Positions 10,956-42,139 of a DNA stretch of 42,139 nt are shown here, piece after piece. The notes beneath the pieces were generated by a model. That model worked only from the letters and a program-made list of their open reading frames with translations. It was not told where the DNA came from and did no database searches. This DNA is from Nitrososphaerota archaeon. GTDB lineage: Archaea; Thermoproteota; EX4484-205; JAAOZP01. Position numbers and translations under genes: made by a program. Position 1 is the first letter of the stretch, and each line of letters starts with the position of its first letter. Location of the stretch: the NCBI GenBank assembly GCA_011605725.1, contig JAAOZP010000002.1:1-42139 (forward strand), given 5' to 3'.

Positions 10956-10961
10956 GCGACC

Positions 10962-12026: not shown

Positions 12027-12027
12027 A

Positions 12028-13392: not shown

Positions 13393-13410
13393 ATATCTCT
13401 ACTACACCAG

Positions 13411-13545: not shown

Positions 13546-13566
13546 TTCGCTCACCCCTTTCACCTC

Positions 13567-13618
13567 AACAGAGTTTTCTGTTAAGAGGGTTTTTAATTTT
13601 TTTTACAATGGTAAAAAT
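13567..13618 (-). promoter_or_regulatory. Putative promoter region of the RiPP operon with two short inverted repeats
   Basis: A-rich AAAAATTAAAAA TATA-like element on the minus strand about 30 nt above the first GTG. Inverted repeats TTTTAC-AATG-GTAAAA (13601-13616) and AACAGA-GTTT-TCTGTT (13567-13582). Confidence 0.4.
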
Positions 13619-13819
13619 GGCATTTTCTGCTAGAGGAGGTATAGCATTTGTTTGCGCAAACCAGCGGGGCCCACAATGGTCAAATACAGATTATGATCCA
13701 TGAAAACAGGAAGATAAGCTCCAGTTGGGTATGTGAATGCTTCCTGTAGAAAGGGTCAAGTAGCTGTGGTTATGCAAAGGCTTCCTAGGTCATTATGAAC
13801 GTATATACTTTTATACCCA

Positions 13820-15361
13820 CTAGGAGACGTATTTATTTATATATGCTCTATGCTTCTTGAAGGACCTCCGTAGGTCCCTACTAACCATGTTGTGGACTTC
13901 TTGAAGCTCTTTGTACTTCTCCACGTTCAACGGGTTGGGGCTAACACGCGTTTGTTCATCCAGCTTGACGAATCGATCACAGATTTCCCGGATGCTCATC
14001 TTCTCCCCGGAATAGTTCATGTAGCACCACATTGCTTGGAGGGCGGCGCCATATGCTGCACCCTCATCTATCTCTATGCAGACAACCTCTGTGTTAAATA
14101 TGTCTGCGGCTATCTGTCTCCAAACCCTATTTTTCGAACCTCCGCCGGTGAGCCTTATTTCACCGGGCTTTATTCCAAGCTCCCTCATCCTGTTCAACCC
14201 GTAGTTCATCCCGAGTGTAACGCCCTCCATAGCTGCCCTAGTAATGCTCTGCCTGTTGAAAGTCCTGCTGTTCAAACCATAATAGACGCCCGTACCCTCA
14301 GGTACATTCGGCGTCCTCTCTCCCTCGAAGTAGGGGATCAAGAGTAGCCCATTAGAGCCGGGAGGAGCCTCCTCAACAGCCCTTGTTAAGTCGTCATGCG
14401 TCATGTTGAAGAGCTCCCTAACATACTCCGTAGCCACGGTAACATTCATCGTGCACAGGAGCGGTAGCCAAGCATTCGTCGAGTCGCAGAAGGCAGCTAT
14501 CTCCCCCCTCGAGTCGACAACCGGCTTCTCAGAGTAAGCATAAATCGTACCAGATGTTCCGAAGCTTGCGGTCACAATGCCCTTCCTAACGTTACCCGTC
14601 CCTATGGCGCCCATCATGTTATCCCCACCACCAGCGCTGACTACGACATCCTCCCTGAAGCCGAACTCGCCAGCAACCTCCCTCCTGATTGTTCCAACAG
14701 GCTTATCAGATCCCTGCAATGGAGGCAGCTTGTCCCGGAGCCCAGGGTCAATAGCATCTATGACCTTCCTACACCAGACTCTTCTCCTAACGTCCATCAT
14801 CGCTGTTCCGGAGGCGTCGCCATACTCCATAACCATGTTTCCCGTTAAATAATAGTTCAGATAGTCATGGGGCAGGAGGACGTGGCGCAGCCTAGCATAG
14901 TTTTGAGGCTCGTTCCTTTTAAGCCAAAGTATCTTGGGGGCAGTGTAGCCGGGAAGTACCAGGTTCCCTATGAGCCTCAAAACATTCTTTACTCCGCCGA
15001 GCCTCCTAGTCAAGTATTCGCACTCTTTAGCTGTACTCGTGTCGTTCCAAAGCTTTGCAGGCCTTATGACCATGCCCTTCTCGTCCAGGGGGACGAAGCC
15101 ATGCTGCTGGCCTGAAACCCCTATAGCCCTCACGCCCCTAGGGTCTACCCCCGTCTTGGAAAAAACCTCTTTAACGGTTTTATGGAAAGCATTAATCCAA
15201 ACCTGAGGATCCTGCTCCTTATGGCCCGGAGGAAGATTCTCTATCAAACCATAGTTTTCAACGGCCTTACCAACCACGGTGCCGGTCTCCCCATGTACTA
15301 GAAGGGTCTTCATGCTCTGGGTTCCCAGATCCACACCTATGAAATAGATGTTTTCCTCCAA
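13820..15361 (-). CDS. xylB: Xylulokinase (FGGY family)
   Basis: IGVDLGTQS, SGQQHG, LWND, TAPKILW, GGGDN, GERTP and GGGSKN. TTG start. Confidence 0.92.
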   Translation of the reverse strand: MEENIYFIGVDLGTQSMKTLLVHGETGTVVGKAVENYGLIENLPPGHKEQDPQVWINAFHKTVKEVFSKTGVDPRGVRAIGVSGQQHGFVPLDEKGMVIRPAKLWNDTSTAKECEYLTRRLGGVKNVLRLIGNLVLPGYTAPKILWLKRNEPQNYARLRHVLLPHDYLNYYLTGNMVMEYGDASGTAMMDVRRRVWCRKVIDAIDPGLRDKLPPLQGSDKPVGTIRREVAGEFGFREDVVVSAGGGDNMMGAIGTGNVRKGIVTASFGTSGTIYAYSEKPVVDSRGEIAAFCDSTNAWLPLLCTMNVTVATEYVRELFNMTHDDLTRAVEEAPPGSNGLLLIPYFEGERTPNVPEGTGVYYGLNSRTFNRQSITRAAMEGVTLGMNYGLNRMRELGIKPGEIRLTGGGSKNRVWRQIAADIFNTEVVCIEIDEGAAYGAALQAMWCYMNYSGEKMSIREICDRFVKLDEQTRVSPNPLNVEKYKELQEVHNMVSRDLRRSFKKHRAYINKYVS

Positions 15362-26317: not shown

Positions 26318-27235
26318 ATGAAAGCGATAATAGCAACATGGTCCTTTGGATTGAAGGCGGTTGAAGCCGGATGGAGAATCCTCAGAAACGGTGGATCCGC
26401 GTTAGATGCTGTTGAAGCATCCATAAGGGAAATAGAGAATGATTTCTCAAACAGGTCGGTGGGGCTAGGCGGGTATCCTAATATTGCTGGATTCGTTGAG
26501 CTGGATGCTGCAATAATGGAGGGCTCAACCCTTAGAGCAGGCTCAGTCGCAGCGGTGAGAAATGTTCAGAACCCGATATCCCTTGCTAGAAAAGTCATGG
26601 AGAAAACTCCACACGTCATGATTGTGGGAGAGGGTGCAACCAAGCTGGCTAAGATCTTCGGCTTATACGTGGAGAAGGTTGATCTTCAGCCTGAAGCAAG
26701 GATGGAATGGGAGAGACGGTTGAAAACCGCCGTCTCCACCCCCCAAAAGGAAGGGACGATCGAATTCTGGTTGAAAATGGCTGCTGAAGGACATTACAAT
26801 CATGACACAATCGGTTGTGTAGCCATGGATGATAATAAGAATATTGTTGCCGGATGCTCAACCAGCGGTTATGCTTTTAAACTCGTAGGAAGAGTTGGCG
26901 ATTCTCCAATAATAGGATCTGGGCTTTATGCGAATAGCTTTGGGGGTGCAGCTGCAACTGGCTTGGGGGAAAACATAATGATTCACAATGTTTCAAGGAT
27001 GGTGGTGGGTTTCATGGAGCAGGGGATTCCCGCAGACGAAGCTGCAGAAAAAACAGTGCAGCATCTTCTCAAAATTGGTAGAAGAATAGACCGTATATCG
27101 TTTGTTTCGCTTGACAAGGATGGTTGTTTCGGAGCAGGCACTACAGAGAAATCCTTTCAGTTTGCAGCAATGTCAGATGCTTTCTCAGAGCCACGTTTAC
27201 TCATGGTTGAGAAGGGGGTGCGCCTCAGTTTATGA
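26318..27235 (+). CDS. N4-(beta-N-acetylglucosaminyl)-L-asparaginase / type-2 asparaginase (Ntn hydrolase)
   Basis: ATW N-terminus, SVGLGGYP, ELDAAIM, HDTIG autoproteolysis site, GRVGDSPIIG and ATGLGE. Confidence 0.88.
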   Translation: MKAIIATWSFGLKAVEAGWRILRNGGSALDAVEASIREIENDFSNRSVGLGGYPNIAGFVELDAAIMEGSTLRAGSVAAVRNVQNPISLARKVMEKTPHVMIVGEGATKLAKIFGLYVEKVDLQPEARMEWERRLKTAVSTPQKEGTIEFWLKMAAEGHYNHDTIGCVAMDDNKNIVAGCSTSGYAFKLVGRVGDSPIIGSGLYANSFGGAAATGLGENIMIHNVSRMVVGFMEQGIPADEAAEKTVQHLLKIGRRIDRISFVSLDKDGCFGAGTTEKSFQFAAMSDAFSEPRLLMVEKGVRLSL

Positions 27236-27312: not shown

Positions 27313-29331
27313 ATGTCAAAAGAAACGCTTAAAAGTGGGTTAACCGTAAGAGCAATCGCTGTTGCAACAATCATAGCCCTTCTATACACAGTCCCGTTAA
27401 TCTGGTGGATGCGATATCAGTCAGCAAGATTCGCGGTTAGAAGGCTTTCTCCTATGGCTATGCACATGATGTTTCTAACTTTCATAGTTGGTATAACGGC
27501 GGTTATTACTAGAAAGTCACTCAATAAAGCATTCTCTAGTCAAGAGTTAACTGTGATATACTCTATCCTGGCTGCTACCCTTCCAATTCCTTGGGCGCTT
27601 GGAATAGTTGAGTACTCTTGGCTCCTAACACCGTTGAGAGTAGGGGATTATCCAGGTGTTTGGCAGGCTGTGCCGGACTTCTGGTTACCTAAGTCGCTCG
27701 GGATAGACGTCATCTGGACAGGAGGAATCGGGCTTTCAGAATTCATCCCAATAGCAATCCTCTGGTCTACCGTGACCATTGTTCTCTATGTTTTCAGCTA
27801 CTCGATAGGTCTTCTTCTGAGGAAACCTTTTCTAGAGGTTGAAAAATTGCCCTATCCAATGTTGACGCCAGCCTCCTTTGTTATTGAGAAAGCAACTACT
27901 GCTGAAGAGGGAGGGTTACCTGCAATACTTAAGGCTAAAATGTTCTGGATCGCTTTCCTAATCGGTTGGCTGGTTAACTTCTATTACAGTCCGACTGGAG
28001 GTGGTGGACAGGGCTCCGGCTTGGAGCTTCTCCTAGGCTACCCCTCTCCAGAACCTTACATGGCCTACACTTACCTAAGTGGCAAGCTTCCATCCCCATT
28101 CACGAACATCGTAATGGCATGGGATTTCGACGCCCTTGGAATAGGACTGTACTTACTGTTCCCCCTGGATGTCCTGTTAACAGGAATAATATTCCACGTG
28201 ATTTGCTATATAATATGGCCGATAATCCAGGTATCAACAGGGCTGGTTAAACCTCAGCCCGGTGGTGGAGAATGGGGCGCATACGGCATCGTTAACTCAA
28301 GCGACGTCTTCGTGCCTGAGTCGTTCCTTGACGTGGGTGCATACATCGGTATAGGTCTCTTGGCTCTATGGGTTATTAGGAAACCTTTGATAGAGTCAGT
28401 TAGACACGCTATCAAAGGGACGGGAGATGAGAGGCCATTCTCATATAGAACCATATGGATGCTAATCGTAGTTACGGCAATAATCCTAACCGGCTTCTTA
28501 ACAGCGAGTGGGGCCGACATATTGTCATCTATAGTTACTGTGGCTCTTCTCGCCTTCGCCATACTCATTCTCGCAAGAGTAAGAGGGGAGGTGTGGCCAG
28601 GATATTCTAATGCTTGGTGCTGTATTCAAGTGCAGAACTCCAGCACAAATCCTCTGAATCCTGTTGCAGTTGTCCAGGTGGTTTCTGGTGCTAAAAGTGG
28701 CGTGCCCGTGAGTACAGATGTGGCGAGGTCGATCTACGTTACCAGTGGTTTCCTGAATGTCACCAGTTACTACGGACTGTGGACACCGGCAATCGCCTCC
28801 TTGGAGTCATTGAAGCTTGCTGAAGAAACAGGAACCAACCCTAGGGATGTCGTGATTGTTGCAGTACCTGTAGCTATCGTAGTGACCTTCCTAACATTCC
28901 TATTCCTATCGATGAACGTTACGCAGTTTGGGGCAAGGAGATTCCTCTCTGACTGGTGGACATCCGGCCAGTTTGACCGCATAGGCAATCAGGATGCAGC
29001 TAATGCTCTTAGAAGCGGGATAACCCTGCCGACGATTGGGAGAACAGTCTGGACTATTCTCGGTGCAGTAGTTGCAATCGGATTAGGCTTGGCTAGAATC
29101 ACGATATCAGGTTTCCCACTGAACCCGTTAGGAATGATAATGTTCTCAAACAGCTTCTATGGATTCGGCTACGGTCTTGTTGCATACATAATCAAGTTCC
29201 TAGTGTTGAAGATAGCCGGTGCTAAAGCGTGGGAGGAGAAGGGTCTGCCTTTAGCGCTGGGTTTATTCCTCGGCGGGTACATAGGCTTCTACCCGACCAG
29301 GGCGCTAGTATGCTTCCTACTGGGGAGGTGA
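27313..29331 (+). CDS. Polytopic membrane protein, OPT-superfamily-like paralogue A
   Basis: About 16 hydrophobic segments, KSGLTVRA N-terminus, SQEL..IY, EKLPYP and PLNPLG. Confidence 0.65.
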   Translation: MSKETLKSGLTVRAIAVATIIALLYTVPLIWWMRYQSARFAVRRLSPMAMHMMFLTFIVGITAVITRKSLNKAFSSQELTVIYSILAATLPIPWALGIVEYSWLLTPLRVGDYPGVWQAVPDFWLPKSLGIDVIWTGGIGLSEFIPIAILWSTVTIVLYVFSYSIGLLLRKPFLEVEKLPYPMLTPASFVIEKATTAEEGGLPAILKAKMFWIAFLIGWLVNFYYSPTGGGGQGSGLELLLGYPSPEPYMAYTYLSGKLPSPFTNIVMAWDFDALGIGLYLLFPLDVLLTGIIFHVICYIIWPIIQVSTGLVKPQPGGGEWGAYGIVNSSDVFVPESFLDVGAYIGIGLLALWVIRKPLIESVRHAIKGTGDERPFSYRTIWMLIVVTAIILTGFLTASGADILSSIVTVALLAFAILILARVRGEVWPGYSNAWCCIQVQNSSTNPLNPVAVVQVVSGAKSGVPVSTDVARSIYVTSGFLNVTSYYGLWTPAIASLESLKLAEETGTNPRDVVIVAVPVAIVVTFLTFLFLSMNVTQFGARRFLSDWWTSGQFDRIGNQDAANALRSGITLPTIGRTVWTILGAVVAIGLGLARITISGFPLNPLGMIMFSNSFYGFGYGLVAYIIKFLVLKIAGAKAWEEKGLPLALGLFLGGYIGFYPTRALVCFLLGR

Positions 29332-29377
29332 CTTCCCCTCGCTCAAAAGGTTTTTTCCCCTATTTATTTTTAGTTTA

Positions 29378-32300
29378 ATGGCATTATCTTTAACTATTGG
29401 TAACACGGTTTTTAGCTTAACGTCATCCAATCAGGCTGAAAGTATTGTTGAGGGAGCAGTTTCCACTGGTGCGGGGTTGTCCAGTATAAATTTTAGGAAT
29501 ATAATTAACCATTTAGAATATTTGTCCTCGCTAAACAGATACACGGGTTATCCTGGATGTGAAGAAGCATCGAAATACATTTTTAATTACTTAAGTAAAA
29601 CATTAGGGCTGAAAACCTGGATTGAAGAGTACGAGCTCCCAATACCTTTCGACTACGGTTCGAGTATAACCGTTTACCTTGACGGGGTAATGAAGATCGT
29701 TGAAGCATATGCTTTGCTTCCAAACAACGTGCAGACTTCCTACGGCAACTATACTGGTTATTTAGTATACTGCGGGTTTGGAACAATAGATGATCTTAAC
29801 AATGTTAAGGGAGAGATAAACGGTAGTATCGCTCTTATGGAGTTCAACTCGGGATACAACTGGTTAAACGTTATGCGACTAGGGGCTAAAGCTGTTGTCT
29901 TCATCGCTCCGAACGATACTATGCGCAGCGAAAGCGATCGAAAGAATCTGGATATTCCTCTGAAATTCCCAAGGGTTTATGTTTCGAGGGATGACGGAGC
30001 TTACCTTAGAAATCTAGCTGTTTCTGGGAAAAGTGTAACTACAACCGTTAGAGTGGGCATGAAATGGATCCATGCGAAGGCGAAGAACATTATTGCGGTG
30101 CTAAACGGGACGGATCCGAAGGAGATGGAGAACACTATCGCCTTAATGGCTTACTATGACTCAGCATCCATAGTTCCCGCTCTCTCACCAGGAGCAGAGG
30201 AAGCTGTTGGAATCGCTTCTCTCTTGGAACTGGCTCGCCTGCTGAAGGAGAATCCTCCGAGGAGGCCAGTCTGGTTCATAGCTTTCTCAGGGCATACTCA
30301 GGCAATGGCTGGGGGAAGAGACTTCATATGGCATAGTGAAGAGTTGGTTGAAAGTGGAGACGGGGCTTCTAAACCGTTCGTATGGCACTATGACCACATA
30401 GGGACTACTGAAAACAAGAATCTAGCTCCCTATGCGATAAAAATGGCTATAAGCTTAGATTTCTCGTCTGATTCCGACGCGATAGCGGTGGCTGGTTACG
30501 GGCGTTTCTACGGTTTGGGCGGTCCCTGGTATGATTGGTATAGTTATGATAAGGATCTTACAAGATTCCTGTTCACAGGGGGACGATATGGGGAGTATAG
30601 TCCTTCAGAGAACATCTATCGCTTGAGAAAAGACGTTTTGCCGGCGAATGCGTCGCGCACGGCTTACAGGGCATTCGGACTGTGGGCGAGTCAACTAGAT
30701 ATGAACCAGTATCTCCCAGGGGCATTAACCTACGAGGCGGAAATATTCGCTAGAACAGGAATATGGGGAATCTGCTTCACCACTGCTCTCTCCATTAAGC
30801 TGACTTACAACACTCCGTTTAACTTGTTCGAGAGAATAAAGTTTGAAAATGTTGTTCCACAGGTCGAGTTCTCGTTTGCACTGATAAATGCAATATTGAA
30901 TGACACGGAGTGGTTTGATTTTAGCAAAGTAACAATCAGCGGGGGTCAAAAAGCAGGTGCTTTCTTCACTCATAAGCATAAGGATGATGCTGGAGTTGGC
31001 TACGTTGTTGTCCACGGTCGCGTTGGCTTATGGAATATAACAAGGAACTGGTACGAGTACAACTGGACGAGTATAGCTGGAGAGGAATGTGATATTCTGC
31101 TCTCTATACGTATAACCAACAGGGCTGACGTGTATGGTCATGAATGGATTCAATTCGCGAATATGGATGACGGTACGTTTGTTTCAAAGGGCATGTTGCC
31201 GAGCCTAGGCTGGGCAGCTCCTCTTGCTGAGTATGAGATTCTACCGTATCTCATAAACAGGACCACAGGAGATATTGAGTATGCTCCCGACATGGGTGTG
31301 TATGGCGGGTATCTTTGGCCACATGGCTACCGGTTCCTCACTTTCGACGATCCCCTTATTGATGGAAGTGGAGATAAAATTGTAAACCTCAGTATGTTCA
31401 AGGCAAGTACAATAGCGCTTCACGACCTGTTTGACCCAAGAACTCTCCTAACTCCAAGCATGGGGTCTTATATTAGGATCCTTGATACGAGTGATGTGGA
31501 ATTAACCCAGTTTAGCTACATAATGTCCGCTTCACCGTCGTTTGAAAGCGCAGAGAACATTGTGCTGGGAGACCCCACTTCAGGTTATGAAGCTGTAATT
31601 TTTGTTCCTCCTGATAGCAGAATAAAAATACTTTTCATGACTGAGCAGACCGCTTTAGGTATATTAACCAATAACGGGGATGGGATTAAGGTTTCAGAGA
31701 AATATTTGAATATTATTCCAACCCCGTTGCACTTTACACGTGATCTTATGAGTTTGGTTGAAGCAAGAGTAAGCGGTTTGACTGCAGTACAGCTTGCCGG
31801 AGGGGGGAAAGGTGCTTACATTAATGAACTTTATAGCCAGAGCATTAAGGAGTTAGAGTCGGCCCGCGAGTTAAAAGGGGAGAACAAGCATGGCGACTAT
31901 TATCTCGCCCTTTTAAAGTCTTGGTACTATATTCAGCTCGCCTATTCTGAAACTAAAAGCATTCTAATGGATTCATCAGTCACCGCAGTCTTCTTTTTTA
32001 TTCTAATCGTGCCGTTTTCTTTTCTCATCGAAAGGCTGGTTTTCTCTGCTAAAGGGAATAGAAGGGTCTTAACCATAATCGTGGTTTTCGTAATCCTAAT
32101 GATAATGCTGTTTCTAATCCATCCCGGTTTCAGAGTAACTCCTTTCTCGATGGTTTCCGCTCTCGGCTTCATATGTTTATCCTTAGTGGCTCTAATTCTC
32201 GTTTTCATGTCGAACGAGATTGCTGGAGTACTTAGGGAATTGAGAAGGAGACTCATAGGCGTCTCTTTCGTCCAGGCTGACACTCTCGGATCCATAATGG

Positions 32301-33979
32301 TGTCCTTCTCGCTTGCTGTTGAGAATATGCGGAAGAGAAAGTTCCGCACCATTCTTGTCCTCTCCAGTCTAGCAATCATAACGTTTGCTTCTGCAAGCTT
32401 CATTTCCATTAGCCCTATCCAAATAACGGTGAGGCTTCCAGTTGAGTCTTCAGGAGGATTCCAAGCAAGGTATCAGGGAGTACTTATTACCGGTACTGAT
32501 TTCTTCGTCCCCATAAACCCGATTGTGACCAGTGTCGCTAGCAACCTGGCAGGAGATGATGTAACTGTTGCGCCGAGGGCGATAATACCCGTAAGCACTG
32601 GAGGAAGCTACCTGTACAATAAGCTGGGTAAGCAGATACTTATAGCTGGGGTTTTCGGCTTCGCGCCTGAAGAGAAGAGCATCCTGCGCCTTCAGGACAC
32701 CATAATACCAGATTACAAGGGTGTTTCTGCCTTAAAGCCATGGTTTACTGAGGAGGATAAGAATGTCTGCTATATTACTGAGGATATTGCTAAAGAGTTA
32801 GATGTCGTGCCTGGAGAAACAGTTGTGTTCTACGGTGTCGAACTGAAAGTGCTAGGAGTCATAAGCCAGCAGCGTCTCAGCAATGTTACAGATATTGATG
32901 GAATTCCAGTTGCTCCATTCGATCCATTGACTACTCGCCCACCGAGGCCGAGAGTATATTGGGGAATAATCTTCATTCCTTACAGGTTCGCCATGGACCT
33001 GGGGGGAATAACATACTCAGTAGCAGTAAGCCTTGAAGACTCGTCTACTGTTTCCAAGGTGGCTGAGAAGATTGCGAAGTACCTTGGTCTAACTTCCCAC
33101 TATGTTTTCGCGGTTGAGGATGTGGTTTCAAATAGAAGCTTCAGATACACTTCTGAAAGAATGTTCGACGTGTCAAACTGGCAGTTCTCCCTAATTCCAA
33201 TAGTAATATGCGCACTAGTACTGTTATCCACGATAACTGGGGCGGTGTATGAAAGGGTGAGGGAGATCTATATCTATTCAGTAATAGGGTTGAACCCTAT
33301 GAACGTTGTTGGAATGTTCCTAGGCGAATGCCTAGCATATGCGTTGATAAGTGCACCCTTAGGTTATATTTTAAGCTCCATACTTGGAAACTTTTCAAGC
33401 GTGTTTGCAAACTATGCTTCCACCTCGGTTATCATAGTGATCCTTTCCTCAATACTGATAATCTTGTCCTCCTCGATCTATCCGCTTCGTAAGGTTGCTA
33501 AGCTCGTAACACCGTCTCTAGAACGAGTGTGGCGTCCTCCTACGAAGCCTAAGGGTAATACTTGGGATATTCCTCTCCCAATAGCGATGGAGACGGAAGA
33601 AGAGGCTGTTGGAATGGTCGCGTTCATCACGGAGTACTTAAAATCATATGGGAGTGAGGCAACTAGCTTCATGGTTGAAAAGCTTGCGCACGAGAAGAAG
33701 ACTGAGGAAGGAAAAAATGTTTATATGAGTAGGGCCGTAATTAGATTAAGACCTTATGAAACCGGTCTAGCTGAGGAAATGATTTTCAAAGCTTCACGCG
33801 TTAAAAACCGGTACGTGATCACGTTGGTTGCAAACCTTGTTTCCGGACCCAGAGTCCTATGGGTAGGCAGTCATCTAAGGGTTGTCGATATGGTTAGAAA
33901 AACAATGCTCGTATGGAAATCTTTGAGCAGCGAGGAGAAAAATAAGTTTCTAAAGCTTGGGGAGGAGATGTTTAGATGA
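29378..33979 (+). CDS. Giant membrane protein: PA + M28-peptidase-like ectodomain fused to a FtsX/MacB-like permease
   Basis: R.TGYPG, PA-like GAKAVVF, NIIAVL.G, AYYDS..PGAEE, a TM block, NMRKRKFRT, ERVREI.IYSVIGLNP..V..MF..E (FtsX) and a C-terminal VTPSLER.W tail. Confidence 0.8.
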   Translation: MALSLTIGNTVFSLTSSNQAESIVEGAVSTGAGLSSINFRNIINHLEYLSSLNRYTGYPGCEEASKYIFNYLSKTLGLKTWIEEYELPIPFDYGSSITVYLDGVMKIVEAYALLPNNVQTSYGNYTGYLVYCGFGTIDDLNNVKGEINGSIALMEFNSGYNWLNVMRLGAKAVVFIAPNDTMRSESDRKNLDIPLKFPRVYVSRDDGAYLRNLAVSGKSVTTTVRVGMKWIHAKAKNIIAVLNGTDPKEMENTIALMAYYDSASIVPALSPGAEEAVGIASLLELARLLKENPPRRPVWFIAFSGHTQAMAGGRDFIWHSEELVESGDGASKPFVWHYDHIGTTENKNLAPYAIKMAISLDFSSDSDAIAVAGYGRFYGLGGPWYDWYSYDKDLTRFLFTGGRYGEYSPSENIYRLRKDVLPANASRTAYRAFGLWASQLDMNQYLPGALTYEAEIFARTGIWGICFTTALSIKLTYNTPFNLFERIKFENVVPQVEFSFALINAILNDTEWFDFSKVTISGGQKAGAFFTHKHKDDAGVGYVVVHGRVGLWNITRNWYEYNWTSIAGEECDILLSIRITNRADVYGHEWIQFANMDDGTFVSKGMLPSLGWAAPLAEYEILPYLINRTTGDIEYAPDMGVYGGYLWPHGYRFLTFDDPLIDGSGDKIVNLSMFKASTIALHDLFDPRTLLTPSMGSYIRILDTSDVELTQFSYIMSASPSFESAENIVLGDPTSGYEAVIFVPPDSRIKILFMTEQTALGILTNNGDGIKVSEKYLNIIPTPLHFTRDLMSLVEARVSGLTAVQLAGGGKGAYINELYSQSIKELESARELKGENKHGDYYLALLKSWYYIQLAYSETKSILMDSSVTAVFFFILIVPFSFLIERLVFSAKGNRRVLTIIVVFVILMIMLFLIHPGFRVTPFSMVSALGFICLSLVALILVFMSNEIAGVLRELRRRLIGVSFVQADTLGSIMVSFSLAVENMRKRKFRTILVLSSLAIITFASASFISISPIQITVRLPVESSGGFQARYQGVLITGTDFFVPINPIVTSVASNLAGDDVTVAPRAIIPVSTGGSYLYNKLGKQILIAGVFGFAPEEKSILRLQDTIIPDYKGVSALKPWFTEEDKNVCYITEDIAKELDVVPGETVVFYGVELKVLGVISQQRLSNVTDIDGIPVAPFDPLTTRPPRPRVYWGIIFIPYRFAMDLGGITYSVAVSLEDSSTVSKVAEKIAKYLGLTSHYVFAVEDVVSNRSFRYTSERMFDVSNWQFSLIPIVICALVLLSTITGAVYERVREIYIYSVIGLNPMNVVGMFLGECLAYALISAPLGYILSSILGNFSSVFANYASTSVIIVILSSILIILSSSIYPLRKVAKLVTPSLERVWRPPTKPKGNTWDIPLPIAMETEEEAVGMVAFITEYLKSYGSEATSFMVEKLAHEKKTEEGKNVYMSRAVIRLRPYETGLAEEMIFKASRVKNRYVITLVANLVSGPRVLWVGSHLRVVDMVRKTMLVWKSLSSEEKNKFLKLGEEMFR

Positions 33980-35898
33980 CGGAGAGTGAAAAATCTGGGT
34001 TAACGTTTCGCTCTATGCTGGCTATTGTTTTCGCCGCCACCATACTTATGCCGGTTACAATATGGATGCAGCTGGTTGGTGGTCAGGCCGCTGGTTTAGG
34101 TTTCACCACAATCCTACTATTCATTTTCGTAACAAAGTATTTCGGAAGAAGCCCTCTTACTCCGCAGGAAATAATACTCATAAACATCGGTATTGGGATT
34201 GCTGCCTATGTTCCTTTCTTTGCAACCTTCATTAACAGAGCCTATTTCGCCGGAAGCCCAGAGGCTTACATGTTCGGCATCACCAAGTTTATTCCCTCCT
34301 GGTGGGTGCCTGAGAACCCGCTTATACGCAGTCAAGCAGTAAGGACACTTCTTCACACTGATTGGATAATGCCGATAGCTATATCGCTGCTTACTTCAGT
34401 CATACTATACTTACCCATACAGCTTCTTCTCGGTTACATCGCATACCAGACATACGTGGTTGAGGAGAATCTTGTATTCCCTCTTGCTAAAGCTGAGGCT
34501 GAGACAGCTATAACGCTTGGAGAAAGAGATCCTAGAAAAACGAGATTCATGTTAATTGGGTTTATAATTACATTCTCATACTCGCTGATCGTCTATGGGC
34601 CTTATATACTTGGTCCGATAATAGGTGTTCCAATGAGTGCTATTCCAGTGCCGTTTGCAGATTTTACATCGCGAACTGAGCATCTCCTGCCAGGGGCTCT
34701 CATAGGCATAGCTACTGACCCTTTTACATTCTTTAACGGATTCATTATACCTGGGAAATCAGTGCTCTGCATGATTATCGGTTCTATTACTATATGGATA
34801 GTCGGCAATATGGTTGGGATTACTTATTTTAAGAGCGAATTCCTGCCTGAGTGGACATCGGGTTTCAGCTTGGCCTTAACGTATCAACGCTCTTTCTTAC
34901 ATACTTGGGCAAGTGTTATGATCGGTTTCTCATTCGCCATCGCGATAACGCAACTGATAGATGCTAGAAGATCAGTGGTTAAATCACTGTTCTCGCTGAA
35001 GAGGATCGGCGGTTCGAAAGGCTCATCATTCTGGTATCTTATACTTATGTACGCTGTCTGCTCATCAATATGGGTTGTTCTTTCACACTGGCTTCTCCCA
35101 GATTTCCCAATACTGCCGCTCGCCTTCCTAATAGTTGTCTGGCCTTTTGTCACTGCGCTCATAAACGCTAGGGCTCTTGGTGAAGTAGGATATCCTGTCG
35201 CAGCCCTGCCGATGAGGGAGATGGTTTATGTGGCAACTTTAACGGCTAACAATATACCTGTCTACAGCAATCTGGGAGTAGGCGTCTGGTTCCTTCCCCT
35301 GCCTTCTACAGTAGGCGTTTATCCTTCAGCTGAAACATGGGTTGGCCACTTCTACACTGCGAGATACGTCGGGCTCTCTATTAAAGACGTGGTTAAGGCG
35401 GTCGTCATGATAGCTATCCCGCTGTCCTTAATCATGAGCTTCATATACACTAATGTGATATGGTCTTTCAGCCCAATACCTTCTCAAGTCTATCCTTGGG
35501 CTGCGATAAACTGGCCTGTTGGTGTTATTCAAAGTGCGCTATGGATCACCCGGTCAGTTACGGTTTTGAAGTCAGCAATAATAAACCCAGGTACACCTCC
35601 CCTTTTAGAGGGGTCCTTCATCATTATGACTCTAGCATACGCGATTGCTAAAGTGACCCACCTGCCTTTCTCTCCAGTAGCCTTCGTAGTGGGGGGAAGC
35701 GTCCTGCCTCCTTATGCTATAACTGCTTTAATCGGATATATCGTCTACAGAGCTGTATGTTCAAGATTTGGAAAGGAGAATGTTGACAAGTATAAGTGGC
35801 CTTTCTACGCTGGCGTATTCATAGGATACGGCTCAGCAACCGCCATGTTGATCACTCTCACAATAGGTTTAAAAGCCATGTGGATGCTTCCATACTAG
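33976..35898 (+). CDS. Polytopic membrane protein, OPT-superfamily-like paralogue B
   Basis: KSGLTFRS, LTPQE and EENLVFP, with many transmembrane segments. ATGA overlap with the upstream gene. Confidence 0.68.
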   Translation: MTESEKSGLTFRSMLAIVFAATILMPVTIWMQLVGGQAAGLGFTTILLFIFVTKYFGRSPLTPQEIILINIGIGIAAYVPFFATFINRAYFAGSPEAYMFGITKFIPSWWVPENPLIRSQAVRTLLHTDWIMPIAISLLTSVILYLPIQLLLGYIAYQTYVVEENLVFPLAKAEAETAITLGERDPRKTRFMLIGFIITFSYSLIVYGPYILGPIIGVPMSAIPVPFADFTSRTEHLLPGALIGIATDPFTFFNGFIIPGKSVLCMIIGSITIWIVGNMVGITYFKSEFLPEWTSGFSLALTYQRSFLHTWASVMIGFSFAIAITQLIDARRSVVKSLFSLKRIGGSKGSSFWYLILMYAVCSSIWVVLSHWLLPDFPILPLAFLIVVWPFVTALINARALGEVGYPVAALPMREMVYVATLTANNIPVYSNLGVGVWFLPLPSTVGVYPSAETWVGHFYTARYVGLSIKDVVKAVVMIAIPLSLIMSFIYTNVIWSFSPIPSQVYPWAAINWPVGVIQSALWITRSVTVLKSAIINPGTPPLLEGSFIIMTLAYAIAKVTHLPFSPVAFVVGGSVLPPYAITALIGYIVYRAVCSRFGKENVDKYKWPFYAGVFIGYGSATAMLITLTIGLKAMWMLPY

Positions 35899-35931: not shown

Positions 35932-38364
35932 TCACTCTAAAACTATTTTCAACGTGCATATTTCGTAAGGGTTTAAAGAGAGCTTCAACCCGTTCGCGTA
36001 AACCCCTACTTCCTCAAGAACCTCGTCTTCAAGAAGATTCGTCTTAAAAGCTTTTTTCAACGTCTTGTCAAGGTTTAACAGGATTTCGCAACTGTTTCTC
36101 ACCCCAGTATGCTGGAAGAGTCTTAATACTAGGCTTTCACCGTCCTCCGCCTTCTTAACGCATTCGATAATCGCACTCTCAGGCTTCACGCTGATGAAGG
36201 AGCCGGTTTTACTTAAAACTCCGCCATGCTTTCTTTCCAAGCGGAGCAGTAAAGGGTTGCTAAACTCGTAGCTTTTTTGCACAACGCTACTCGTCTTCCA
36301 CTCTCCCACATGCGGGTAGAGAGCATACTTTACCACATGCCTCCCGTTATCCGTGTTGTATGATGGTTCAGTCGGGCTCCTGAGCAGGGTTAAGCGTAAA
36401 ACATTATGCTCTGAATCATACCCGTACTTTGCATCGCTTAGAAGAGCAACACCGTAACTACCGTCGGCTTCAGACATGTCGATCCATTGTTGAAACGGCT
36501 GTTCCTCCCCATTCGGAATCCTCGTTGCACTGCCATACGGTATCCCCACGTTCAGCAGTGGGCTAGTTATGTTTAGGGGGAACTCTACTTTAAGAGCGGT
36601 GTGAACCTCGTTCCAGTCTACTGTAAGACTGAAATCTATGCGTCTGATTCTTGAATAAGCAGCAACCTCCTGTACGTATGTTGAGTTACCGTAGGCTTTT
36701 TTAACGGTTAACTTAGCCCTTACAGGCCCATTCTCCGCAACCCTAATGCTTCCCTTGGATTCAATCTTCCTTGCTATTCCTGTAAACCTGTTCGGCCTGT
36801 CTACCCCTGGAGTAAGCCTGCCCTCAGAGTCCCCCGGGTCTTCAATCAACTTGAGGACATTACCATGATTGTTTTCCTCAAGCAATTCCCTAAGGTTCTC
36901 CCTGTCAAAAACGCTTTCTAAGTCTCCTGTTGTTCCGCATACCCTGATCCTGAAGAAGCGGTTTTCCAATTCGTTGCCTGATGCTTTAACAGGGCTTGTT
37001 TCATAAACGTTCCCATTGGCAGGGACTACTCTGTAAACCTTGTATCCTAATGGCGGAACGTTTTCAGCTATGAAAATAATCTTTAAACATCTTTCCCCCT
37101 TCTCATCGCAACATTCTGTTGTTTGAATCGGGACCGTTGCTCCATCAGGATCTTCAAGCCTAACGTTCTTCCAGCCTTCTGGAAGATTGAGCTCCGTTTC
37201 AACTATATCAGTTCTGCTCCAGGACAGGCTGTTGAACACTATGATGCTGAGCTCACTGTCACTGGTGTCTATGAGAGAGGAGATTTCCTGTAGGGCTTTC
37301 TCCAAGACTTCTCCAGCTGTTCTTAAAACAGCTTCATAGGCCTTGCCAGCCTCTGCCTGAACCGATGGAATGACGCTTCCTCCGATTATATCGTGAAACT
37401 GGTTGAACAGAACCTTCTCCCAGGCGGAGTTCAACTCAGACTGTGGATATTTCATTCCCGCGATGAGCATCGCAATCGAAGAGAATTTCTCCGCAGCCAG
37501 AAGTTTAACCTCGCTTAAGCGATTCCCCTCCTTCAACCTGGCGCAATTAGTTAGATCTCCTGCAAGCTCCCAGTCTAATTCTCTCTTTAAAACCGGGAGG
37601 CCGCTAGCCTCCTTCGACAAGGATTCGAAGAACTGATGGGGCGTGCTAAAACGGATCTCTATCTCTGGCTTCAAAGCATCTTTAACCTCCTGGATGTTCT
37701 GTATCTCCTGATAGGTCGGTCCTCCACCATGGTCGCCGCTTCCAACAATCATCGGAATGTTTTCAACACCATATCTTCTCCGTGTTTCATCAACCAGTTC
37801 CCGGATTTCCGGAAACGGTCTATATGCGAACGACCCCCTTAGAGGCCTACACGCTAGGATTCGTGAACCATCAGGAGCCTCCCACCAGAATAAGTCCTCC
37901 CCTATGCTCCCCCTGTAGAAAACCAGGTAGTTTATGCCGCTTTTCCTAAGTATCTGCGGAAGCTGCCACGGGATAGTCCAGCTGTCAGGTAACCATCCAA
38001 CCCTAACCTTAGCCCCGAACCTTCGCGTGAAATACCTCTGTCCAAAGAGATACTGTCTAACTAGAGATTCTCCACAAGGCTCGCCGCCTTCAAACTCGAC
38101 GTATGCGCCGCCCACGACATCCCAACGTCCCTCCTTAACATGCCTAACTATTTCGGAAAACAGTTCCGGCAAGAATTCTTCAGCAGCCTTGTACAGGGCT
38201 GCTTGGCTCTGCGCGAAAGTATAAGCTTCATGCATTTTAAGATTGTCAATCGCCCTGATGAAAGTCAGCTTAACACAGTCGTGGATTGTTTCAGGGTAGT
38301 ATGGCCAGAGCCATGCGACATCGATGTGTGACTGGCTTATCACGTGCACCACTGGTTTTCCCAT
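35932..38364 (-). CDS. GH38 alpha-mannosidase
   Basis: SHIDVAWLW, GESLVRQ, WLPDSW, GDHGGGP, NQFHDIIGGS, FNSLSW.R and LTLLRS. Confidence 0.95.
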   Translation of the reverse strand: MGKPVVHVISQSHIDVAWLWPYYPETIHDCVKLTFIRAIDNLKMHEAYTFAQSQAALYKAAEEFLPELFSEIVRHVKEGRWDVVGGAYVEFEGGEPCGESLVRQYLFGQRYFTRRFGAKVRVGWLPDSWTIPWQLPQILRKSGINYLVFYRGSIGEDLFWWEAPDGSRILACRPLRGSFAYRPFPEIRELVDETRRRYGVENIPMIVGSGDHGGGPTYQEIQNIQEVKDALKPEIEIRFSTPHQFFESLSKEASGLPVLKRELDWELAGDLTNCARLKEGNRLSEVKLLAAEKFSSIAMLIAGMKYPQSELNSAWEKVLFNQFHDIIGGSVIPSVQAEAGKAYEAVLRTAGEVLEKALQEISSLIDTSDSELSIIVFNSLSWSRTDIVETELNLPEGWKNVRLEDPDGATVPIQTTECCDEKGERCLKIIFIAENVPPLGYKVYRVVPANGNVYETSPVKASGNELENRFFRIRVCGTTGDLESVFDRENLRELLEENNHGNVLKLIEDPGDSEGRLTPGVDRPNRFTGIARKIESKGSIRVAENGPVRAKLTVKKAYGNSTYVQEVAAYSRIRRIDFSLTVDWNEVHTALKVEFPLNITSPLLNVGIPYGSATRIPNGEEQPFQQWIDMSEADGSYGVALLSDAKYGYDSEHNVLRLTLLRSPTEPSYNTDNGRHVVKYALYPHVGEWKTSSVVQKSYEFSNPLLLRLERKHGGVLSKTGSFISVKPESAIIECVKKAEDGESLVLRLFQHTGVRNSCEILLNLDKTLKKAFKTNLLEDEVLEEVGVYANGLKLSLNPYEICTLKIVLE

Positions 38365-38474
38365 TCTCAGTGCCTTTTCAAATGCTTGACGAATTAAAAA
38401 CGTTTGCGGACTCTCACTATCTTGATGCGAGCGTAAAACTTTTACGCGGGTCTCGCAAGAGAGGAAGAAGAGTT

Positions 38475-39734
38475 ATGGTTTCAGATGGTTTGAAAACCGG
38501 TTCCTCCTCGGCAGAGATAGCATGTGACGAATCGATGGTTATCGCTGGCGGGATACATCCTAGGCTTGCCTCCGGCAGGGATGGAAGCATAAGGGCTTCC
38601 GCGTTAATAATTGAAAAAGACGATAGGGTTTGCATCGTTTCATGCGACGTGCTGGCGCTTCAGAGAGATTTATGCGACGAGCTTTGCCGAGAGATTGAGG
38701 AGAAATTCGGAATCCCGTTTGAAAATATTCTCATAACCGCCACCCATACTCATCATGCACCGTCAACCGTGACTATACACGCATACGGGAGAGACGAGCT
38801 GTTTGTTAAGAACGTTAAGCAGGCTGTTTTAAAGGCTGTCGACTCAGCCACTCATAGTTTGAAAAGCGTTGGGATGAGTTTTTGGCTTGGGATCGAATCA
38901 ACCGTCGGCCAGAATAGTCGCCTCCTCCTTTCAGACAATACGATATATTGGGTTGGGCCTAGGGACGACGCGTTAAGACCCACAGGTCCTTTCGACCCAG
39001 ATCTTCCGGTTATTCTTTTTAAAAAGGAGGATGGAAACTCAGAGGCTGTTGTTTTCAACCATTCTACTCACAACATTGGCTCGATAAATCCTGGAGCTGT
39101 TTCCCCAGGATTCTATGGTCTGGCTGCTCAAGAACTTGAGGAGGAGGCTGGCGGGAATTTTCTGTTCCTCCCTGGAGCCTCAGGCTCGACGCACAACCTT
39201 GTTTTGCCGACGGACGAGATGATCCTGAGAATAAAGAATGCTATCAGGGAAGCCATGCTTCAGGCTAAGCCCAGAACAGTTCAACGCATAGTGTCAGTGA
39301 AGAAGGAGTTCGAGTATCACGTTAGAAGGTTTAACGAGGAGAAGGAGGAGAAAGCCGTGTCATACTATTGCAAAAAGAGGGTTGATAATCCTGAACCAGT
39401 AATAGAAGTATTCCGGAGAATGCGGAGGGAACTGTCTACACATCAGGGAGAGACGCGCAGATCATGGCTGCAAACAATTCTTCTCGGAGACATAGCTTTG
39501 GTAGGAGTCCCTGGAGAACTGTTTACGAAGCTTGGAATCATCATGAAGCGCCTTTCCCCCTTCCGCTACACTTTCATAATACAGCTTGCTAATGATTGGA
39601 TAGGTTACATTCCGGATAAGCAGGCTTACGAGCTCGGCGGCTATCAGACATGGACGGGTTTCCACAGCTATGTGGAGAAAGGAACGGACGAGATGCTGGT
39701 GGAGAAAACTGTTCAGATGCTGCACAACTTGTAG
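38475..39734 (+). CDS. Neutral/alkaline ceramidase-superfamily amidohydrolase
   Basis: ITATHTHHAP, GPFDP, NHSTH, PGELF, LANDWIGYIP and GGYQ. Likely start MVSDG at 38475. Confidence 0.75.
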   Translation: MVSDGLKTGSSSAEIACDESMVIAGGIHPRLASGRDGSIRASALIIEKDDRVCIVSCDVLALQRDLCDELCREIEEKFGIPFENILITATHTHHAPSTVTIHAYGRDELFVKNVKQAVLKAVDSATHSLKSVGMSFWLGIESTVGQNSRLLLSDNTIYWVGPRDDALRPTGPFDPDLPVILFKKEDGNSEAVVFNHSTHNIGSINPGAVSPGFYGLAAQELEEEAGGNFLFLPGASGSTHNLVLPTDEMILRIKNAIREAMLQAKPRTVQRIVSVKKEFEYHVRRFNEEKEEKAVSYYCKKRVDNPEPVIEVFRRMRRELSTHQGETRRSWLQTILLGDIALVGVPGELFTKLGIIMKRLSPFRYTFIIQLANDWIGYIPDKQAYELGGYQTWTGFHSYVEKGTDEMLVEKTVQMLHNL

Positions 39735-39963
39735 TCTAAAAACCATCCGGCTTCCAGATGGTTACCAGGAAGATTGAAAAGGCTTTGAAAGATGCGAGAA
39801 AGTGTTAACATTAGTGTTTAAGCTTCTTAGTTAGCGTCATAATGTCCTTTAATCGCGATAAGAATTGCATGCACATTAAGCTGCTGACTTAGATTTTTAC
39901 TTTTCATGAACTGTTGCGTAAATCTTAAATAAAATGAATACGGAATATCTGTCGGTGTGCCTT

Positions 39964-42139
39964 ATGGTTAAGGCTGAAGTGAGGGTTTTAAAAGGCGGAC
40001 CAGCCCTTTTCATAGATGATAAGCCTGTTTTCCCAATGCTTCACTGGATTCATCCTCCTCCTACGGAAGGCGACTGGGTTGAAAAGGAGTCTGTTAAGGA
40101 TTTTGCCAAAGCAGGTGTTCATCTTTACACTTTCGGAGTGAACATTGGGGATTTTGTCAACCTATGGAAAGGAGAAGGCCTTGTGACGAATGCTAAGGAT
40201 AGTAAGAAAGCATTAGCAGTCTCGTTCAGTCCTCAAAAGGAAGGCTATGAATATGATTTCTCAAAACTTGATAAGCAGATTGAAAGATTGTTAGAAGTGG
40301 ATTCAAACGCTTATGTGCTTTTAAGGGTGGGTTTAGAGATGCTGGGCCCCGAAAACTTTTGGTGGCGCCAGAGGAACCCTAGAGAACTGGAAATTTACAG
40401 TGATGGGAGAGCCGAAACCCAATCATACGCTTCAGGAAAATGGCTCCAAGACTGCTCGAGCTTTTTAACTTCTCTCATACATCATCTGAGAACTACGGAC
40501 CCGGGTTTAAGGGTTATTGGAATCCATCCTTGCGCGGGCCATGCGGGTGAGTGGGTAAAGGAAAGCGCTATGGAGGGTTATGCTACGGACTACAGTGAAG
40601 TTATGAGAGATGCTTTTAGAGCTTGGCTGATCACAAAGTATGGAAGCTTGGAGGCTCTCAGGAAAGCTTGGAACGATCCTTACATACATTTCAACAATAT
40701 TGAAGTCCCATCGCCCGAAGAACAGGTAAACGCTGATCTCTATCACTTTAGAGATCCTTCAAAGGGGAGAAAAGTCATAGATTACTTCGAGTTTCTGTCA
40801 GACATTACTGCCAACGATATCACCCATCTCTGTAAGACTATTAAAGAAGCTAGTAACTTTGAGATGCTTGCAGGCGTATTCTACGGATACTTGATGGAAT
40901 TATCCTGGTCTAACTGGTTCTTCGATCAGGGTAGAAACATGGCGTATTCTGCTTATCAAAGATCTGGACACTTGGCTCTAAGCAAGGTGCTGGCCTCGTC
41001 TTACGTGGACTTTATTGCAAGCCCCTACAGCTACGGGTTCCGCGGAATAGGAGGTGACTCAGCAGTAATGTCGATAACGGAATCAATAAAGCTCCATGGA
41101 AAACTATATTTTATTGAAGATGATACTCGTACGCATCTCTCACCGTCTGATTCGAAGTACGGCAGGGCGAAAAACGCGGAGGAAACAGTGTCCTTACTGA
41201 CTCGAACCTTTGGCCATGTTTTAACGAGGTCATGCGGAATATGGTATGGAGGCTACTACCGGGATGAGGAAGTCATGACCACTATATCCCGCTTCATGAA
41301 AGCGGGAGAGAAGAGCCTAGGGTTGAACAGGTCCCCAGCCAGCGAGGTGGCTCTTATCATAGATGAAAAGAGCTTCATCTACGAGAAGATGGTTAAGAAT
41401 CTTGACTGGCCCCTCGTTTACTGGCAGAGGCATCTAGGCCTATCAAGAATGGGAACACCCTATGATATTTATCTATTGAACGACCTGGATAAAATGCCTA
41501 GTCAATACAAGTGTTACATATTCCTGAATACGTTTCATCTGGATGATGTGCAACGCGACCTGATAAAGAAGGTAACGCGTAGAGATGGGAAGACATCTGT
41601 TTGGATGTATGCTTCAGGTCTGATAAACCGTGACGTTTCGGCAGAGAACATGGAAGATATTACTGGGATAAAGTTTAGCCTAGACTTGACAGAGTGGGGT
41701 GTAACCATGTTGATCACTGGTTTCGACCATCCCATAACTAGGGATTTACCGGCTGACACGATTTTCGGAACAGATCTCCATGTGGGGCCGATACCGTATG
41801 TCGAGGATCCGAATGCGGTGGTTCTCGGAACCATTGTCTATAATAGGGGTATGTGCGTGCCGGGAATGGCTGTTAAAGAGTTCAGCGAATGGAAATCAAT
41901 CTACATAGGTGCTCCGAACGTGCCGTCGAATGTACTCCGCTCAATCGCAAAATATGCTGGAGTCCACATATATAGCTACTCTGACGATGTATTGTATGCG
42001 GGTAGAAACTTCGTCTGCATTCATGCTGTTAAACCAGGTGAGAAGCGAATACGTCTTCCAAGGAAAAGCGATGTATATGAAATTATTAAAAACAGGCTGG
42101 TTGCAAAAGAGGCGACTGAGTTCTTTGAGGTTTTCAAGA
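39964..42139 (+). CDS. GH42-like beta-galactosidase/TIM-barrel glycosidase (truncated at the window end)
   Basis: Not in the ORF track. Reads MVKAEVRVLKGGPALFIDDKP, then GEW, DYS...AFRAWL..KYGSLEALRKAWND, GVFYGY, SPYSY and EDDTRT, with no stop seen before the window end. Confidence 0.8.
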   Translation, partial: MVKAEVRVLKGGPALFIDDKPVFPMLHWIHPPPTEGDWVEKESVKDFAKAGVHLYTFGVNIGDFVNLWKGEGLVTNAKDSKKALAVSFSPQKEGYEYDFSKLDKQIERLLEVDSNAYVLLRVGLEMLGPENFWWRQRNPRELEIYSDGRAETQSYASGKWLQDCSSFLTSLIHHLRTTDPGLRVIGIHPCAGHAGEWVKESAMEGYATDYSEVMRDAFRAWLITKYGSLEALRKAWNDPYIHFNNIEVPSPEEQVNADLYHFRDPSKGRKVIDYFEFLSDITANDITHLCKTIKEASNFEMLAGVFYGYLMELSWSNWFFDQGRNMAYSAYQRSGHLALSKVLASSYVDFIASPYSYGFRGIGGDSAVMSITESIKLHGKLYFIEDDTRTHLSPSDSKYGRAKNAEETVSLLTRTFGHVLTRSCGIWYGGYYRDEEVMTTISRFMKAGEKSLGLNRSPASEVALIIDEKSFIYEKMVKNLDWPLVYWQRHLGLSRMGTPYDIYLLNDLDKMPSQYKCYIFLNTFHLDDVQRDLIKKVTRRDGKTSVWMYASGLINRDVSAENMEDITGIKFSLDLTEWGVTMLITGFDHPITRDLPADTIFGTDLHVGPIPYVEDPNAVVLGTIVYNRGMCVPGMAVKEFSEWKSIYIGAPNVPSNVLRSIAKYAGVHIYSYSDDVLYAGRNFVCIHAVKPGEKRIRLPRKSDVYEIIKNRLVAKEATEFFEVFK

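Follow-up and report, generated by a model that had tools for sequence, protein, structure and literature searches.

The question raised by this locus is what a membrane machine might do that joins a giant protein of the FtsX/MacB type to two OPT-like polytopic proteins and has no ATP-binding cassette (ABC) ATPase beside it. Its three genes, which we call A, G and B, lie at positions 27313–35898 of a 42,139-nucleotide stretch of DNA (the window; contig JAAOZP010000002.1 of assembly GCA_011605725.1) from a hot-spring archaeon of the Nitrososphaerota, the genome of which comprises 2.23 Mb in 20 contigs, with the window on the contig labelled C13. This cassette is real, widespread and unstudied. 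With moderate confidence, we propose that it is a conserved archaeal oligosaccharide-uptake cassette, that this copy would take up mannose-rich N-glycan or glycopeptide, and that G would be energized by a motor encoded in trans.

According to the list of open reading frames, all three genes are on the + strand. A (27313–29331) encodes a 672-residue protein with at least 12 hydrophobic segments, G (29378–33979) a protein of 1533 residues characterized here by Pfam, profile and hydropathy analyses, and B (33976–35898) a polytopic protein of 640 residues. The spacing between A and G is 46 nucleotides, and the ATGA at 33976–33979, ahead of which stands a GGAGG sequence, holds both the stop codon of G and the start codon of B, by which B is translationally coupled to G. 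The coordinates, the shared strand and the overlap bear out the original prediction, made from this DNA alone, of an operon-like trio; its further statement that no ABC ATPase adjoins the trio also holds, the sole ABC_tran match of the window (11433–11861) being approx. 15 kb upstream and in another operon.

The genome itself carries five paralogous trios, on contigs C13 (the window), C5, C2, C7 and C3. A scan for related loci with an alignment of seven G sequences, using one genome per species, returned 80 loci, which are carried by Bathyarchaeia, Brockarchaeota, Thermofilaceae, Desulfurococcaceae and metagenome-assembled genomes of Nitrososphaerota. Neighbours were then counted around 54 full-length G genes from other Thermoproteota, each with at least 2.5 kb of flanking sequence on either side. 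B was found directly downstream of G at 38 of the 54 loci and directly upstream at 7; within 8 kb of G, B was present at 49, both A and B at 45 and neither at 5. The gene order varied among these loci (A>G>B at 11, G>B>A at 10, A<G>B at 8, plus others), which argues for selection on co-occurrence and not for the mere inheritance of one operon. Among 251 genomes sampled across Thermoproteota, the tail of G was detected in 53 and strong matches to B in 48, with both in 47, G only in six and B only in one, and some genomes carry up to ten copies of G. The trio thus keeps together in other genomes; a lack of such co-occurrence would have refuted the original prediction.

Variant arrangements were also seen. 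At the loci of a Nitrososphaerota-like clade (L047, L057, L073, L075, L078 and L081, with G at approx. 9800–14600 in each), two conserved proteins, one of 339 residues (four transmembrane helices) and one of 296 residues, are encoded after G; that these represent a split B was ruled out, as neither resembles the A profile or the B profile. A second and shorter FtsX-type protein, termed G2 (approx. 850–1070 residues), often lies within the cassette in the order G>B>G2>A, and loci with a G2-type protein are L029, L037, L039, L043, L046, L065, L069 and L071. In the genome under study, a G2-type gene stands alone four times (C12:36182-39181, C1:54296-57391, C7:152223-155441 and C2:17480-20038), and none of these adjoins an ATPase of its own type. 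In addition, bacterial relatives of G, of 1646–1663 residues and with PA, MacB_PCD and FtsX domains, were found in the cultured Desulfovibrio sp. TomC and DV (P0076, P0088 and P0089).

The N-terminal part of G has a PA plus M28 fold with altered metal and catalytic motifs (29492–30427, + strand; residues 39–350). Pfam recognizes Peptidase_M28 (PF04389) at residues 237–320 with 38.6 bits, and the G family profile matches the PA-domain aminopeptidase of PDB entry 2ek8 over residues 43–350 with an E value of 1.3e-24; lower-ranked profile matches of the head are the transferrin receptor and nicalin (both with E values of approx. 1e-6 to 1e-7), and also nicastrin. In the alignment with 2ek8, HHD is replaced by YYD, NDDASG by -EEAVG and AEENG by GHTQA, and the same substitutions are present in the consensus of the G family. 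The zinc ligands and the catalytic glutamate of M28 (HxD, the aspartate of GAxDD, and EE) are therefore not kept in G, which has YYD, EE and HT at these places, indicating that the head is a pseudo-peptidase or has a rewired site; the substituted glutamate and histidine residues could still bind metal. The description of G in the original prediction as a degenerate M28 head on an FtsX giant is in agreement with the 2ek8 match, these motif losses and the FtsX match given below.

The head continues with beta-sandwich domains of a generic, CBM20/Ig-like kind (30998–31717, + strand; residues approx. 541–780; predicted model ma0a07cfb8072). The predicted fold of residues 480–865, with a model confidence (pLDDT) of 77.5, consists of beta-sandwich domains followed by three long helices. 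Its best structural match, the CBM20 starch-binding domain 1cqy, is borderline (VIA Z 8.1), and Foldseek returned only matches of low TM score, to proteins with beta-sandwiches in tandem, among them pilins and polysaccharide-binding proteins of Bacteroides. A helical stalk made of the three long helices and then three predicted transmembrane helices follow (31721–32206, + strand; residues 782–943). By hydropathy, G has seven transmembrane segments, three at residues 866–943 and four in the FtsX module, and the 860-residue head is placed outside the cell because of the known FtsX topology. Most G homologues have a clear N-terminal signal peptide. If G is started at the ATG at 29378, its copy in the window does not include the sequence KRFFPLFIFSL, the n/h-region of such a signal peptide, which is encoded in an open in-frame stretch immediately upstream (29306–29377, + strand) that holds no ATG, GTG or TTG. 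The 93%-identical locus L019 has one extra T in a run of T residues, and with an extra T in the window the ATG at 29310 would be in frame and give MLP...KRFFPLFIFSL, overlapping the end of A; behind this single-nucleotide difference lies either an error of the assembly or a genuine frameshift.

The membrane-proximal part of G is a MacB/FtsX module, consisting of a first transmembrane helix, an extracytoplasmic core domain and transmembrane helices 2–4 (32330–33502, + strand; residues 985–1375). The four-helix FtsX membrane domain was detected by Pfam (PF02687) at residues 1270–1375 with 39.5 bits against a cut-off of 25.5. MacB_PCD was slightly below its cut-off (26.4 bits against 27) at residues 1112–1234, PF12704 is recorded for many G homologues, and the G family profile matched MacB (5gko) over residues 1185–1368 with an E value of 2.5e-18. 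Approx. 260 residues between the transmembrane helices at 991–1009 and 1272–1290 form a large extracytoplasmic domain. In MacB, a major and a minor coupling helix make contact with the ATPase (helix positions from PMC5985334). By position and motif, the G sequences ERVREI (ERxxEI), after the second helix of the module, and TPSLER, after the fourth, correspond to these two helices, and residues E1292, R1293, P1379, S1380 and R1383 are invariant across distant homologues.

Beyond the last transmembrane helix, G ends in a conserved cytoplasmic alpha+beta domain with the order beta-alpha-beta4-alpha2 (33509–33976, + strand; residues 1378–1533; model m43df78f332e3, pLDDT 91). Its structural matches are KA1 or helix-grip-like folds only, with Z values of approx. 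8–8.8; no Foldseek match fell below 1e-3 and the ESM Atlas gave no usable match. We considered whether this domain might be a cryptic ATPase and ruled this out, since its fold is not that of a nucleotide-binding domain. The tail of G was found in 1553 representative proteins of a library of 1.84 billion proteins (1339 at E values of 1e-10 or below; 50%-identity clusters), and in the best 150 of the 1553 matches it is C-terminal, mostly in proteins of 1430–1570 residues.

The original prediction had described A and B as OPT-like paralogues with shared motifs. A matched the Pfam models DUF6785 (89.3 bits) and DUF6784 (30.8 bits), B matched DUF6784 weakly and below the cut-off (15.5 bits), and neither of the two proteins of the window matched Pfam OPT. 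Pairwise BLAST between A and B detected only the N-terminal KSGLTxR stretch. Family profiles were built from 27 relatives of A and 29 relatives of B, and hhalign aligned these over 576 columns with a probability of 100% and an E value of 2.8e-39, showing that the two are full-length homologues, with the motifs KSGLTVR/KSGLTFR, SQE/PQE and EKLPYP/ENLVFP (GLTxR, QE and E-x-LPFP) in register. Ten of the 29 B relatives match Pfam OPT (best 9.9e-19), as do five of the 27 A relatives (best 1.3e-8), all 27 of which match DUF6785, and the B paralogues on C5 and C3 reach OPT scores of 38.7 and 38.6 bits, above the cut-off of 25.8. The profile alignment and the OPT matches of the relatives make the label of OPT-like paralogues correct, and the homology argues for two divergent branches within the OPT superfamily, one being the DUF6785/DUF6784 family, to which A belongs, and the other the B family. 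No solved structure was matched by PDB sequence searches with the A profile, the B profile and the best OPT-scoring paralogue. A search with the B profile among longer proteins, which is weak evidence, found no protein in which A or B is fused to G. A and B may form a heterodimer.

What the cassette might carry is indicated by its neighbours. Upstream of A in the window lies a gene of the Asparaginase_2 family, of the glycosylasparaginase/isoaspartyl peptidase type (26318–27235, + strand; PF01112, 8e-75), which ends 78 nucleotides before A and is probably in one transcription unit or functional locus with it. Downstream are a GH38 alpha-mannosidase (GH, glycoside hydrolase) convergent with B (35932–38364, − strand), a Ceramidase_alk-like protein scoring slightly below the cut-off (38286–39734, + strand; 31.1 bits against 32.1) and a GH42-like glycoside hydrolase that continues past the end of the window (39934–42138, + strand). 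The order Asparaginase_2-A-G-B-GH38 is kept in the locus L019. The C5 copy has a GH130 mannoside phosphorylase as its neighbour, the C7 copy GH42-like and GH3 enzymes, the C3 copy GHL10, and the C2 copy GH38, a ceramidase-like protein, DUF5107/TPR and GFO_IDH_MocA, so that all five trios of the genome adjoin glycoside hydrolases or a phosphorylase. The operon of the complete genome G046 is G-A-B-GH57. No N-terminal hydrophobic signal was found in the GH38, GH130, GH3, GHL10 and Asparaginase_2 neighbours, from which it follows that these would act on imported material and that GH38 would be cytoplasmic; a hydrophobic segment is present at the N-terminus of one GH42-like neighbour. This pattern is that of substrate-specific uptake loci. 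Its presence at all five copies makes an oligosaccharide or glycopeptide a more likely cargo than a plain peptide, a clue that the original prediction had overlooked, and for the copy in the window GH38 together with Asparaginase_2 suggests mannose-rich N-glycan or glycopeptide fragments.

The families that recur in a set of 85 neighbourhoods are GFO_IDH_MocA (19 loci), a URO-D-like protein (12 loci), MFS, aldo-keto reductase, MR_MLE and a 435-residue winged-helix regulator. The OPT ancestry of A and B, the aminopeptidase fold of the G head and the Asparaginase_2 gene adjoining A in this copy would also fit an importer of peptides, the canonical OPT cargo. The M28-like head would then recognize the N-termini of peptides, and sugar enzymes would adjoin the cassette by chance or solely on account of glycopeptide tails. 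We regard this as distinctly unlikely, because no peptidase is recurrent among the 85 neighbourhoods, where the recurrent genes encode sugar oxidoreductases, dehydratases and glycoside hydrolases, and because the catalytic motifs of the head have been lost.

Three further observations concern the neighbours. The GH38 and ceramidase-like pair is duplicated, standing beside the trios on both C13 (35932–39734) and C2 (G000:C2:37161-41219). The URO-D-like protein, which has the uroporphyrinogen decarboxylase/methyltransferase fold, lies near the cassette in Bathyarchaeia at its 12 loci (e.g. L036:12743-13843). The 435-residue protein has an N-terminal AsnC/MarR-type winged helix and is encoded directly upstream of A at eight loci, including G000:C5:13059-14366 (L099:7060-8364), making it a candidate regulator of the cassette. 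Its presence at these eight loci, and the conserved cytoplasmic C-terminal domain of G with its ligand-binding or membrane-binding type of fold, could be taken to mean that G is a sensor, which would report extracellular glycans as BceAB-type permeases signal to kinases, with the C-terminal domain as the output. Such a role seems highly improbable to us, given that G is tightly, translationally coupled to two transporter-fold proteins and that no kinase or other signalling partner is recurrent in the neighbourhoods.

The remaining part of the question is what would drive the machine. There is no ABC ATPase within or beside any of the five trios of the genome, and a same-strand ABC gene within 3 kb of G occurs at only 2 of the 54 loci. 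The search for an orphan ATPase that had been suggested with the original prediction gave no MacB-class ATPase lying alone in this genome, as all three of them adjoin an FtsX gene. In genome G046, however, a 188-residue FtsX protein with four to five transmembrane helices and without an ectodomain (the short FtsX) is encoded approx. 9 kb from G, with approx. 2 kb separating it from the end of the operon G-A-B-GH57, and is followed by two ABC ATPases. The genome under study has a single orthologue of the short FtsX (C10:57025–57720), which is followed by a 244-residue ATPase (C10:57728–58462; the pair being G000:C10:57025-58462) with LolD, the nucleotide-binding domain of MacB, DarD, DevA, YbbA and FtsE as its best curated matches. 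Among the 24 loci listed, 22 hold the short FtsX and 14 have an ATPase of approx. 240 residues after it on the same strand.

Orthologues of the short FtsX are cleanly set apart by score, with 160 bits or more where other matches reach no more than 118, and are present in 58 of the 251 genomes. G and the short FtsX occur together in 50 genomes, G only in three (two of which are merely 70% complete), the short FtsX only in eight and neither in 190, and at the level of genera the corresponding counts are 19, 0, 2 and 87; these counts are descriptive, as related genomes are not independent and shared ancestry inflates the co-occurrence. Within the order to which G046 belongs (101 genomes, 47 genera and 13 families), G and the short FtsX are found only in one genus, g37, and lie side by side (approx. 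9 kb apart) in both of its genomes, which are complete and of 1.6 Mb, as if they had been acquired jointly. Parts of the cassette also lie near the short FtsX at L091 and in genome G098, where it stands beside a 1072-residue FtsX protein, A and B, so that in three lineages short FtsX and cassette are at most 10 kb apart. In addition, the short FtsX carries ERYKEI and SPxEALR where G has ERVREI and TPSLER. On account of the shared distribution, the linkage in three lineages and the kept coupling motifs, we consider an ATP motor acting in trans to be more likely than no motor, as far as sequence comparison can indicate. The term ‘ATPase-less’, under which the trio had originally been described, is accordingly true only locally, since the C10 pair of short FtsX and ATPase tracks G and the coupling motifs are kept.

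Some further features of these loci may be recorded. At L107 (G046:C1:996000-1015999; 4771–6835), the two ATPases after the short FtsX are different, with 257 and 242 residues, and would fit an asymmetric (mixed) permease pair. In G098, A and B, with the 1072-residue FtsX protein and the short FtsX beside them (L108), are 700 kb from G. A conserved gene of 920–956 residues lies upstream of the short FtsX on the opposite strand at L117, L118, L120 and L121, and in other genomes the gene neighbouring the short FtsX encodes 500 or 623–639 residues.

Uptake by the cassette might nevertheless be truly ATPase-less, as originally proposed, with A and B as proton-driven carriers of the OPT type, G as a passive anchored receptor or scaffold in which the FtsX fold is no longer linked to ATP, and the short FtsX pair serving something else. 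This would agree with the lack of an ABC ATPase in cis, with the unique C-terminal domain of G at the place where an ATPase would dock, and with a short FtsX that is mostly far from the cassette and is present without G in eight genomes. We think it rather doubtful, as the coupling-helix motifs of G are invariant across distant homologues, G is tightly associated with a MacB-class motor at the level of genomes, including the order in which both are confined to a single genus, and motor and cassette are no more than 10 kb apart in three lineages.

For the oligosaccharide-uptake cassette that we favour, the identities of the domains, the co-occurrence of the genes and their glycan context have been shown above, the direction of transport, the cargo, the contacts between subunits and the energy source are inferred, and the parts may work as follows. 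Outside the cell, the head of G would capture the glycan and the MacB-type module would do mechanical work, handing the cargo to A and B, and the pair of OPT-fold proteins would be the path across the membrane. The short FtsX and its LolD/MacB-class ATPase, encoded once, would energize G; the pair would be common to the five G paralogues and probably to other giant FtsX proteins too, and the short FtsX might combine with G in a mixed pair like that of LolC and LolE. The C-terminal domain of G, being at the predicted meeting point of the minor coupling helix and the ATPase, may dock or regulate the latter. MacB-type proteins of the type VII ABC class do mechanical work outside and move no cargo across the cytoplasmic membrane (PMC5985334), and this, together with two partners of transporter fold, suggests such a division of labour. 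A bolder extension is that the cassette represents a hybrid class, in which one MacB-type motor in trans would serve up to ten interchangeable receptor giants, each mechanically feeding its own OPT-fold pair with a different oligosaccharide; we put this forward only tentatively, as a possibility. In that case it would be the archaeal equivalent of the polysaccharide utilization loci of bacteria, made of wholly different parts, and would include the first type VII ABC system known to serve import and the first glycan carrier of OPT fold.

Several points weigh against the proposed cassette. To our knowledge, no member of the OPT family is a sugar carrier. The resemblance of the G beta-sandwich to CBM20 is only at background level (Z of approx. 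8), the signal peptide of this copy of G has no clean start codon, and a Nitrososphaerota-like clade has G with neither A nor B adjoining. With regard to the motor, the short FtsX is near the cassette at only 3 of approx. 85 loci, it occurs in eight genomes that lack G and is absent from three that have G, and the inflation by shared ancestry noted above applies. Lastly, the characterized type VII ABC systems export or extract, or act at the outer face of the membrane (PMC5985334), and none of them is known to import.

This outward action is also the starting point for a different reading, namely that the trio is an outward-acting envelope machine like MacB, LolCDE, FtsEX or YbbAP, in which G would use ATP to extract, expel or activate something at the surface, as in the processing or release of glycoproteins or lipids, and A and B would export or flip. 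The dead-peptidase head of G is reminiscent of EnvC, an inactive protein of the LytM type that partners FtsEX, and a PMT-like glycosyltransferase is present in the G098 locus. We hold this to be unlikely, as up to ten paralogues per genome, each by different catabolic hydrolases that are mostly without signal peptides, are typical of nutrient uptake, and the characterized proteins of the OPT family (TC 2.A.67) are importers.

Compared with known systems, G is like the type VII ABC proteins (MacB of MacAB-TolC, LolCDE, FtsEX, YbbAP and YtrEF) in its four-helix FtsX domain, the large extracytoplasmic domain between the first and second helices and the coupling motifs, and it shares genomes with a LolD/MacB-class ATPase that has a short FtsX as its partner. 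It differs from them in having no ATPase in cis, in the 860-residue head of PA/M28-like and beta-sandwich domains and the three extra transmembrane helices before the module, in the 155-residue cytoplasmic domain after the fourth helix and in its obligate association with two OPT-fold proteins; moreover, the context of the cassette points to import, whereas the known type VII proteins serve in export, in extraction or in activating enzymes outside the membrane. A and B resemble the OPT/Yellow-Stripe-like proteins (TC 2.A.67, PF03169) in being polytopic and approx. 650 residues long, in the OPT matches of their families and in the GLTxR and E-x-LPFP motifs. However, the A and B of the window miss the OPT model, A being a DUF6785/DUF6784 protein, and the two form a diverged pair bound up with a giant FtsX protein, whereas each known OPT carrier works as the product of a single gene; carbohydrate, their likely cargo, is not known from OPT.

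The PA plus M28 fold of the G head is shared with the PA-domain aminopeptidases (2ek8) and with M28-fold pseudo-peptidase receptors (transferrin receptor, nicalin and nicastrin), to which it is also similar in the loss of the canonical His, Asp and Glu-Glu motifs; unlike all of these, it is archaeal and fused to a MacB-type membrane module. The presence of many paralogous uptake cassettes per genome, each with its own set of glycoside hydrolases, is reminiscent of the Sus-like polysaccharide utilization loci of Bacteroidota, and that one ATPase may serve many permeases is known from sugar ABC importers with a shared ATPase of the MsiK/MalK type. The cassette has, however, no SusC/SusD, solute-binding protein or type I ABC permease, and the likeness is one of logic and not of ancestry. 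Our literature search found no paper on this system, on DUF6785/DUF6784, on FtsX with M28 in archaea or on Brockarchaeota with OPT, and no characterized transporter matching the trio was found, in line with its original description as uncharacterized.

The uptake of complex carbohydrates in uncultured heterotrophic archaea such as Brockarchaeota, Bathyarchaeia and Thermofilaceae has largely been inferred from ordinary ABC and MFS genes. The cassette described here is common, reaching up to ten copies per genome, and lies beside the hydrolases that define the predicted diets of its carriers. In public records, G is named ‘FtsX-like permease’, ‘M28 family peptidase’ or ‘antimicrobial peptide transport permease’, and the latter two annotations are corrected by the present analysis. 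If glycan import is true, a function would be provided for two Pfam domains of unknown function, the OPT superfamily would be extended to sugars, and the mechanotransmission of type VII ABC proteins would gain an inward role.

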